Origin: Escherichia coli
Lineage (GTDB): Bacteria > Pseudomonadota > Gammaproteobacteria > Enterobacterales > Enterobacteriaceae
DNA length: 2,113 nt
Direction: 5' to 3' (one strand)
Assembly (NCBI RefSeq): GCF_013315695.1
Contig: NZ_CP054361.1
In this document: piece after piece, positions 166 to 1,960 of the stretch
How the letters are laid out: the number at the start of each line of letters is the position of its first letter
How positions within the stretch are numbered: position 1 is the first letter of the stretch
Notes under the pieces: model-generated
Databases searched by the model: none
Seen by the model: the letters and a program-made list of their open reading frames with translations, nothing else
Told to the model about the DNA's origin: nothing
Made by a program: the position numbers and the translations under genes

Positions 166-294
166 ATGCAATCTCTAGTGCTCTGTCTATCCTGCATTAT
201 CCTCAGCATTATCCTCAGCATTATCCTCAGCATTATCCTCAGCCTTGCCAACTCGACACCAATGCAGGATAGACAATCCGATGTCAAATGTTAA
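166..294 (+). CDS. Hypothetical 42-aa hydrophobic peptide reading through the tandem repeat (MQSLVLCLSCIILSIILSIILSIILSLANSTPMQDRQSDVKC); speculative
   Basis: ATG at 166 follows an in-frame TAG at 151-153; stop TAA at 292-294. The 12-bp repeat is in frame and encodes IILS x4, giving a roughly 25-residue hydrophobic segment followed by a charged tail. Only a weak SD (GAG at 158-160). All three frames through the repeat are open, so this may be an artefact. Confidence 0.15.
   Translation: MQSLVLCLSCIILSIILSIILSIILSLANSTPMQDRQSDVKC
195..242. repeat. Tandem direct repeat, 4 perfect copies of 12-bp unit CATTATCCTCAG
   Basis: Identical units at 195-206, 207-218, 219-230 and 231-242. A degenerate partial copy (TATCCTG) lies at 188-194 and the array decays into CCTTGCC at 243. 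Confidence 0.95.
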
Positions 295-480
295 CACTCT
301 GCGAGTGGTACATTTTCCCCGGATTATCGTCCTGAGCCTGCCGCTGGCTCTCTTTCTACCGCCTCGCTTTGCTCGTTGCTCAACGCCTCACAGACACGGA
401 TTAAAATCCGCATCCGTTCACCGTTTTTTAAAGTCCGTTAAAAGCATGATGCCATCTCCGAGAGTTAATCTCGTCAAATG

Positions 481-994: not shown

Positions 995-1960
995 ATGTCA
1001 GAAGATAAATTCCTTTCGGACTACAGCCCCCGTGATGCAGTTTGGGATACCCAGCGCACGCTTACCGATTCTGTCGGGGGTATCTACCAGACTGCTGCTG
1101 AATTCGAGCGCTATGCACTCCGTATGGCCTCCTGTAGCGGTTTGTTACGTTTTGGTTGGTCTACCATCATGGAAACCGGAGAAACGCGCCTACGGCTTCG
1201 TAGTGCGCAATTTTGCCGTGTCCGTCATTGCCCTGTCTGCCAGTGGAGAAGAACCCTCATGTGGCAAGCCCGTTTTTATCAGGCTCTACCGAAAATCGTT
1301 GTGGATTACCCGTCTTCCCGATGGTTGTTTCTGACGTTAACTGTCAGGAACTGCGAGATAGGTGAACTTGGAACAGTCCTTACAGCAATGAATGCGGCGT
1401 TTAAGCGAATGGAAAAGCGAAAGGAGCTATCACCTGTTCAGGGGTGGATCAGGGCTACGGAGGTGACGCGAGGTAAGGATGGCAGCGCACATCCGCATTT
1501 TCACTGTCTGCTGATGGTGCAACCTTCTTGGTTTAAAGGGAAGAACTACGTTAAGCACGAACGTTGGGTAGAACTCTGGCGCGATTGCTTGCGGGTGAAC
1601 TATGAGCCGAATATCGATATTCGGGCAGTAAAAACTAAGACAGGTGAGGTTGTGGCCAACGTTGCCGAGCAACTGCAAAGCGCGGTTGCTGAAACGCTGA
1701 AATACTCCGTTAAACCGGAAGATATGGCAAACGATCCTGAGTGGTTTCTTGAGCTGACGCGGCAGCTTCACAAGCGCCGTTTTATCTCGACCGGTGGGGC
1801 GCTAAAAAACGTCCTCCAGTTGGATCGAGAAACCAATGAGGATCTTGTCATTGCCGACGATGTAGGGGATGGCACTGATGACGGGAAGCGGACGGCGTTT
1901 GTCTGGGATTCAGGTAAACGGCGTTACAAACGCGCCCCTGAGAAGGATAAATCGGATTAA
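995..1960 (+). CDS. rep: Rolling-circle replication initiator protein, Rep_1 (pC194/pUB110) HUH endonuclease family, 321 aa
   Basis: ATG at 995 is the first start after an in-frame TGA at 944-946, with GGAG at 983-986 eight nt upstream. Translation shows CRVRHCPVC (aa 74-82, nt 1214-1240), FLTLT (aa 112-116, nt 1328-1342), HUH motif HPHFH (aa 166-170, nt 1490-1504), WVELWRD (aa 191-197) and ETLKYSVK with Glu233/Tyr237 (Tyr codon 1703-1705). Motif order and spacing match my recollection of pC194 RepA and pUB110 RepU (FLTLT, HPHFH, CPVC and KYSxK motifs). No search was run. Confidence 0.93.
   Translation: MSEDKFLSDYSPRDAVWDTQRTLTDSVGGIYQTAAEFERYALRMASCSGLLRFGWSTIMETGETRLRLRSAQFCRVRHCPVCQWRRTLMWQARFYQALPKIVVDYPSSRWLFLTLTVRNCEIGELGTVLTAMNAAFKRMEKRKELSPVQGWIRATEVTRGKDGSAHPHFHCLLMVQPSWFKGKNYVKHERWVELWRDCLRVNYEPNIDIRAVKTKTGEVVANVAEQLQSAVAETLKYSVKPEDMANDPEWFLELTRQLHKRRFISTGGALKNVLQLDRETNEDLVIADDVGDGTDDGKRTAFVWDSGKRRYKRAPEKDKSD

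Follow-up and report, generated by a model that had tools for sequence, protein, structure and literature searches.

A probable four-cysteine metal site in the N-terminal module of a Rep_1 rolling-circle initiator from a 2113-bp Escherichia coli plasmid

The subject here is a short, cysteine-rich stretch, CRVRHCPVC, within the replication initiator (Rep) encoded by a 2113-nucleotide piece of Escherichia coli DNA (contig NZ_CP054361.1; 'the window' refers below to this piece at its full length). An earlier note on this DNA, made from its letters alone and termed here the original prediction, had drawn attention to that stretch as a potential metal-binding motif. The gene involved, rep, is the sole long open reading frame (ORF) of the window, and CRVRHCPVC probably is one part of a structural metal site with four ligands, three of which it contains and the fourth of which, C47, is found upstream. 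The features upon which the argument relies are as follows, with residue numbers being those of Rep.

995..1960, plus strand: rep gene, encoding a 321-residue rolling-circle initiator of the Rep_1 (pC194/pUB110/pKYM) type, as based on the ORF, Pfam Rep_1 and WP_001287824.1
1097..1306, plus strand: N-terminal Cys4 module, residues 35-104, as seen in the AlphaFold2 (AF2) model
1133..1135, plus strand: codon (TGT) of C47, the putative fourth metal ligand, outside of the interval of the original prediction
1214..1240, plus strand: CRVRHCPVC, with C74, C79 and C82 putative ligands, R75 and R77 conserved basic residues, and H78 variable and apparently not a ligand, as based on sequence and conservation
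1244..1252, plus strand: W84-R85-R86, an aromatic/basic triplet located in the initial turns of the helix that follows the CPxC cap (W in 125/145, R in 142/145, R or K in 142/145 representatives)
1328..1342, plus strand: HUH-superfamily motif 1, FLTLT, residues 112-116 (T116 invariant, and L113, T114 and L115 nearly so, in alignment A1)
1490..1504, plus strand: HUH motif 2, HPHFH (HxHxH, hydrophobic), residues 166-170 (H166, P167 and H168 invariant in alignment A1)
1691..1714, plus strand: catalytic motif 3, ETLKYSVK, with E233 and Y237 (Y237 invariant in alignment A1 and present in 149/150 representatives, E233 in 140/149)

That the 321-residue ORF encodes a Rep_1 (PF01446) rolling-circle initiator is clear from its sequence, with nicking and rolling-circle activity being predicted. 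Pfam Rep_1 is matched over residues 66-311 at 297.2 bits versus a cut-off of 33.2 (E=1.3e-88), and identical plasmids annotate the product as 'protein rep' (WP_001287824.1). The catalytic motifs are in place as well. In alignment, FLTLT pairs with the FLTLT of pC194 and pUB110, HPHFH pairs with the NPHFH of pC194, and E233/Y237 pair with E210/Y214 of pC194, both of which are invariant in alignment A2; these two pC194 residues reportedly were given their catalytic role by Noirot-Gros et al. in 1994. Rep as a whole contains seven cysteines (47, 74, 79, 82, 120, 171 and 198) along with six histidines.

CRVRHCPVC itself lies exactly where the original prediction had placed it. Its first codon, that of C74, begins at base 1214, and the sequence from 1214 to 1240 is TGC CGT GTC CGT CAT TGC CCT GTC TGC, which translates to CRVRHCPVC (residues 74-82). 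No minus-strand ORF of at least 30 amino acids overlaps this interval in the ORF table, and two plus-strand ORFs in other frames, 1032..1334 and 1213..1365, are contained within rep. Under random placement, three or more of the seven cysteines would fall within nine residues with a probability of 0.05, and four or more Cys or His would do so with a probability of 0.023. The clustering of cysteines within this single protein, that is, is only weakly non-random, and it is conservation which provides the real support. At the level of DNA, TGC and TGT are interchangeable at the Cys codons of homologues, and the neighboring codons vary synonymously (CGT/CGG/CGC, GTC/GTT, CAT/CAC, CCT/CCG) with the amino acids kept; to judge from this variation, the constraint therefore is at the protein level, with selection acting on the protein and not on the DNA. 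A DNA near-repeat found here, TGCCGTGTC / TGCCCTGTC, is Cys-x-Val encoded twice, and was rejected as a signal since homologues vary these codons synonymously.

Conservation was assessed starting with a HMMER scan of 1.84 billion cluster representatives, which yielded 3902 relatives at E<=0.001. The sample inspected consists of the best 150 of these 3902 (representatives of 50%-identity clusters, 36-60% identical to the query), with per-column counts made over the 145 sequences covering the position, plus 16 chosen, more distant members. The distant members are pC194 RepA, pUB110 RepU and the Reps of Streptococcus, Bacillus, Enterococcus, Lactiplantibacillus, Lactococcus and other Staphylococcus plasmids, and further those of Nitrosomonas pAYL, Shewanella pDolos, Arsenophonus and Polaromonas. 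Among the representatives, cysteine is found at position 47 in 143/145, at 74 in 144/145, at 79 in 143/145 and at 82 in 144/145. All 16 distant members, C47 included, keep C-x20..26-C-x4/5-C-[PA]-x-C, and the six of them that were scanned all reach the Pfam Rep_1 threshold. Conservation of the cysteines thus spans Proteobacteria and Firmicutes, down to approximately 24% identity, and in a 106-sequence alignment of both phyla (alignment A3, Firmicutes included), no column of the module is invariant other than those of C47, C74 and C82, with C79 nearly so. Two additional homologue searches supplied little further breadth: in the one seeded with alignment A1, every sequence obtained was a Rep_1 relative having 54-100% identity to the query, a range that goes no further out than the 150 representatives, and the one started from Firmicute Reps gave nothing beyond near-identical proteins of the pC194 type.

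Position 78 is a different matter. It is His in 50/145 representatives and otherwise F, L, Y or T, and among the 16 distant members it is L, F or Q in every one from Firmicutes, pC194 and pUB110 included. As the conservation of C47 matches that of the other three cysteines whereas H78 is variable, the conservation pattern indicates that the putative ligand unit is C47+C74+C79+C82 and not the C74/H78/C79/C82 that had been proposed. Three residues of that proposal therefore are retained, H78 drops out as what appears to be a subgroup-specific residue rather than a ligand, and C47, which had gone unlisted, is added. The accompanying claim of a conserved family feature, along with the mention of a similar C-x4-CPxC motif in pC194 RepA (found here as C60-KNRF-C65-PV-C68), is borne out: lack of cysteine conservation across the family had been named as the finding that would count against it, and near-invariance was found instead. 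In alignments, the Cys4 module indeed presents itself as a Rep_1 family hallmark, visible in any Rep_1 alignment. Basic residues interleaved with the cysteines are conserved too, i.e., R75 in 111/145 representatives (plus H in 22 and K in 10) and R77 in 125/145.

One representative departs from this pattern altogether. In P0125, a metagenomic Rep_1 representative of 348 residues, the four cysteines are all replaced (by T, S, D and T) while the adjacent WRR is kept, as is the remainder of Rep_1; joint loss of this kind is the pattern to be expected were the four residues to form one shared site. A second, apparent exception is the Rep of Polaromonas pW11NP1 (NZ_MG869624.1, 823-1926), the annotated form of which has three N-terminal cysteines. 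The same open frame, if extended upstream of the annotated start, holds a Cys exactly 26 residues before C-x5-CPxC. A true three-Cys exception was rejected here, with the annotation most likely being a start-site miscall that places the start too far downstream.

How the four cysteines may be arranged can be considered using an AF2 model of full-length Rep, based on a 95-sequence alignment and having a mean predicted local distance difference test score (pLDDT) of 95.7 and a predicted template modeling score (pTM) of 0.92. In that model a helix (35-46) leads to C47, a beta-hairpin follows (50-58/64-71), C74 resides in an eight-residue non-beta loop (72-79), and a long helix (80-104), N-terminally capped by C79-P-V-C82, leads into the motif-1 strand (FLTLT, 112-116). 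The motif thus lies upstream of the HUH core, as had been stated, with its CPxC cap opening the helix that runs into motif 1. The isolated fragment 33-106 is predicted to have the same fold, with a pLDDT of 92.8, and therefore should behave as a small autonomous module. Because C47 and C74 flank the hairpin, they would be neighbors at its base, and because the stretch 72-79 is modeled as non-beta coil, C74, C79 and C82 would necessarily be close in space. Plausibly, then, the four sulfurs can meet at one site in a structure such as that modeled. Foldseek of the full Rep model versus the Protein Data Bank (PDB) returned nothing at E<=1e-3, no solved structure was found for any Rep_1 family member, and a literature search found no paper on metal binding or on cysteines in Rep_1 proteins, the latter agreeing with the earlier remark that the role of the motif is little characterized.

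The module also bears a likeness to the N-terminal domain of IS91/ISCR transposases, which Pfam catalogs as Zn_Tnp_IS91 (PF14319). Rep residues 71-97 match profile positions 51-77 of 90 at 18.0 bits versus a threshold of 26.3 (E 0.003), and the NCBIfam IS91 transposase model matches residues 71-173 weakly and collinearly (E 0.014). In a Pfam scan of 95 Rep_1 members, Zn_Tnp_IS91 is matched by 56 at E<=0.1 (best E 1.1e-4) and REP_ORF2-G2P by 90, and any family other than these two and Rep_1 by at most three; no other zinc-finger family recurs among the 95. Both pC194 RepA and pUB110 RepU match Zn_Tnp_IS91 as well. The ISCR1 transposase from a class 1 integron (7245-8783), used as a positive control, gives Zn_Tnp_IS91 at 76.6 bits, followed by Y2_Tnp. 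Its N-terminal sequence includes ...LLQC65GRLEYGFMRVRC77EDC80HHERLVAFSC90KRRGFC96PSC99GARR..., and the six cysteines numbered there are conserved among ISCR-type proteins (n=113).

Alignment by hhalign pairs Rep AQFCRV-RHCPVCQWRR with AFSCKRRGFCPSCGARR. In an extended profile alignment, ISCR1 C65 falls opposite Rep C47, motif 1 of the transposase opposite FLTLT, and HYHMLF opposite HPHFH. Rep C47/C74/C79/C82 correspond in this manner to ISCR1 C65/C90/C96/C99. The remaining two cysteines of the transposase form a C77-x2-C80 knuckle at the hairpin tip, which Rep_1 does not possess: in Rep the equivalent residues, M-E-T-G-E (59-63), are without Cys, the majority residues being D/E, T, G and E. 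By alignment, the Rep module thus appears to correspond to the second half of the Zn_Tnp_IS91 domain, without the hairpin-tip knuckle. With that knuckle present, C77-x2-C80...C96-x2-C99 (C-x2-C-x15-C-x2-C) gives the ISCR1 domain a likeness to the zinc ribbon of the ribosomal protein S27e (E 0.0034). Of the suggestion that CRVRHCPVC belongs to a zinc-ribbon-like element, then, the sub-threshold likeness to half of an IS91 domain is what survives, whereas a classical ribbon (S27e type, with two CxxC knuckles and a three-stranded antiparallel sheet) is not what Rep displays. As separate observations, ISCR1 carries an additional CxxC near its C-terminus (CEHC, residues ~460-463), and several sources name ISCR1-type relatives 'ribosomal protein S27E'.

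The interpretation favored here is that a structural Cys4 metal site (C47/C74/C79/C82), most likely for Zn2+, draws three of its ligands from CRVRHCPVC; to this we assign a probability of roughly two in three. We infer, that is, that a metal is bound, that this metal is zinc and that the four sulfurs converge upon it. Several points weigh against this. The existence of P0125 means that the site is dispensable in at least one lineage, and the conservation described is that of the best 150 of 3902 representatives plus 16 chosen members. Every link to the IS91 domain falls below curated thresholds, the 'zinc-binding' label of that domain is itself a prediction, and the profile-profile comparison of Rep_1 with ISCR is collinear but weak (E 0.02, probability 2%), with BLASTP of Rep versus the ISCR1 transposase finding nothing.

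Alternatives may be considered in light of the same evidence. Iron rather than zinc could occupy the site, as rubredoxin-like Fe(Cys)4 or as [4Fe-4S], such that initiation could be sensitive to redox or iron status. Fe-S clusters are in fact carried by the DNA-processing nucleases/helicases AddB, Dna2 and Cas4, four invariant cysteines with a CPxC knuckle fit rubredoxin-type sites as well as zinc sites, and the joint loss seen in P0125 fits any shared cofactor. Iron nonetheless seems unlikely, as the only recurrent domain likeness is to a domain cataloged as zinc-binding, the ISCR1 copy of which resembles the S27e zinc ribbon, and as the Rep spacing, C-x26-C-x4-C-x2-C, differs from the C-xn-C-x2-C-x5-C of the nuclease Fe-S family; simple structural zinc also would be more economical for a small plasmid that replicates in many hosts. 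More improbable still is that no metal is involved, with the cysteines serving instead as structural or redox-active thiols, e.g., as C47-C74 and C79-C82 disulfides or as a thiol switch. C-x2-C is also the motif of thiol-disulfide oxidoreductases, and C47 faces C74 at the hairpin base of the AF2 model, but Rep works in the bacterial cytoplasm, a reducing environment in which stable structural disulfides are seldom seen, the likeness is to zinc domains, and near-invariance of the four cysteines together with their joint loss in P0125 fit one shared site better than two pairs.

A compact CHCC zinc knuckle, that is, C74/H78/C79/C82 within nine residues, is a reading to be given very little credence. 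All four residues are present in Rep, and H78 is kept in the closest enterobacterial relatives as well as in Arsenophonus (CRVRHCP / CHFRHCP). Against this are the variability of position 78 described above, the equally strong conservation of C47 and the adjacency of H78 and C79, an uncommon ligand pair. That the Cys/His cluster is due to chance, or is a DNA-level signal without a role in the protein, hardly merits belief: the within-protein clustering is only p ~0.05 and the near-repeat is present, but the cysteines are conserved across two phyla with freely varying synonymous codons, by which chance is contradicted.

Returning to the Cys4 site, presumably of zinc, a role can be proposed. Through the metal, helix 80-104, which heads into the HUH core, would be joined to the helix/hairpin module at the N-terminus, and the interleaved R75, R77, W84, R85 and R86 would thereby be held in a fixed positive array. 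That array might then engage the DNA of the origin, such that the strand destined for nicking is placed beside the HUH metal/Tyr237 active site. This DNA-contact role we infer with less confidence than the Cys4 metal site itself. There is as well a more speculative version, which on balance is doubtful, wherein the Rep_1 quartet is not a degenerate ribbon but rather a differently wired site, with the two hairpin-base cysteines, which IS91 transposases conserve too (as C65 and C90), replacing the first knuckle of the ribbon; such a site may read a CTTG-type nick-site core or may be an iron- or redox-sensitive gate of initiation. CTTG-type nick-site cores are common to pC194-family origins and IS91 ends.

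As to the plasmid from which the gene comes, numerous circular plasmids of E. coli and Klebsiella, each 2113 bp long, are identical to the window throughout (megablast, 100% identity), and the window therefore is the full sequence of a common cryptic plasmid in rotated form. In one of these plasmids, typed as Col(BS512) and non-mobilizable, the annotation consists of two genes, one for 'protein rep' and one for a hypothetical protein. A Shigella sonnei plasmid of 2089 bp encodes a 100% identical Rep. The Gram-negative prototype of the family is pKYM. This rolling-circle replication plasmid likewise is from S. sonnei, and its 173-bp origin is bound by RepK and HU (PMC4439123). Rep therefore probably is of the pKYM lineage. 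Sister plasmids of 2089, 2101 and 2113 bp differ by steps of 12 bp. Also 12 bp in length is the unit of a perfect tandem repeat (GCATTATCCTCA x 4.2) found at window positions 194-243, and the steps in length therefore suggest variation among sister plasmids in the copy number of that repeat. The repeat lies inside two nested inverted repeats, 124-147/331-354 (24 nt, 92%) and 184-198/261-275 (15 nt, 100% complementarity), and the large imperfect palindrome around 194-243 could be a candidate single-strand origin. A 37-bp stretch, window 260-296, which overlaps the inner inverted repeat at its right arm, is found at 100% identity in ~31-36-kb plasmids of E. coli, Klebsiella and Salmonella, and at two places in most of those plasmid records listed. 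This short stretch is probably the reason for most of the 343 matches to 'conjugative' plasmids.

Elsewhere within the window, a 43-bp stretch at 704-746 (..GCGCAATTCTCGCGCGTGATCCTTGTATTTATACTT..), ~250 bp upstream of rep, has 95-98% identity in small plasmids of 1.8-2.6 kb, which match the 994-bp non-coding query nowhere else. This stretch is a candidate for the core of the double-strand origin, or for that of the site to which Rep binds. An exact CTTGATA, which we take to be the pC194-family nick-site core, occurs at 84-90 on the minus strand, i.e., the strand opposite rep; with ~0.26 exact matches expected by chance, this is not significant alone. At 554-586 an inverted repeat, GGTGGATGGTTTCAC / GTGAGGCCATCCACC, has a 3-nt loop and is followed by a T-rich run, such that it looks like a terminator. 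The region 471-588 has 85% identity to part of a 3.7-kb E. coli plasmid, there under a coding sequence annotated as VRR-NUC. An Rfam scan of the 2113-nt window returned no match.

Rep_1 initiators drive many small Gram-positive and Gram-negative plasmids, including the classical vectors pC194 and pUB110, and the module considered here is tied to IS91/ISCR transposases, which mobilize resistance genes. The plasmid and its Rep have been deposited hundreds of times already, and the result, for this plasmid, is an ordinary one. Already known are the plasmid, Rep, the Cys motif as a family hallmark and, since 1992, the relatedness of the IS91 transposase to Reps of the pUB110 family (Mendiola and de la Cruz 1992, as cited in PMC4778049). 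What the present analysis adds is the ligand set, the mapping onto four of the six IS91-domain cysteines, the natural four-fold Cys loss and the finding that the Pfam Rep_1 match, which extends only from residue 66 onward, misses C47 and thereby one putative ligand of the site. With C47/C74/C79/C82 as the metal-site unit and H78 irrelevant to it, the targets for mutagenesis would be clean ones.

In comparison with known systems, Rep displays the same order of elements as do pC194 RepA and pUB110 RepU, namely Cys4 module, FLTLT, HUH and E...Y catalytic motif. The quartet in pC194 RepA is C37-x22-C60-KNRF-C65-PV-C68, and in pUB110 RepU it is C56-x22-C79-KSRL-C84-PM-C87. As a side observation on the former, the rep frame of the pC194 record NC_002013.1 closes after 232 codons (229 from the first ATG), whereas modern pC194-type Reps are of 307-311 residues, and the PLSDB table lists no rep coding sequence for that record; an old frameshift or sequencing error is the likely reason for the short frame. 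The enterobacterial branch differs from other Rep_1 proteins in having His78, a slightly longer hairpin (x26 versus x20-23) and an extra subgroup Cys at 120.

With IS91/ISCR, Rep_1 has in common an A-F-x-C-[KR]-x-R-x(1,2)-C-P-x-C-x-x-R-R core and a Cys ~25 residues upstream, and in both the Cys module, motif 1 and HUH are collinear and the flanking basic/aromatic residues are conserved. The two nevertheless differ in catalytic domain, which is Y2_Tnp in IS91 but of the one-Tyr-plus-Glu Rep_1 type in Rep. A further system compared, at 11% identity to Rep, is the Helitron (Helraiser) transposase (PDB 7LCC), a eukaryotic Rep-helicase fusion with a solved chain of 1369 residues and two catalytic Tyr. 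In Helraiser, an N-terminal region with a predicted zinc-finger-like motif is required for single-stranded DNA binding and cleavage (PMC4778049), and that requirement offers an analogy for the role with DNA that the Rep module may have.
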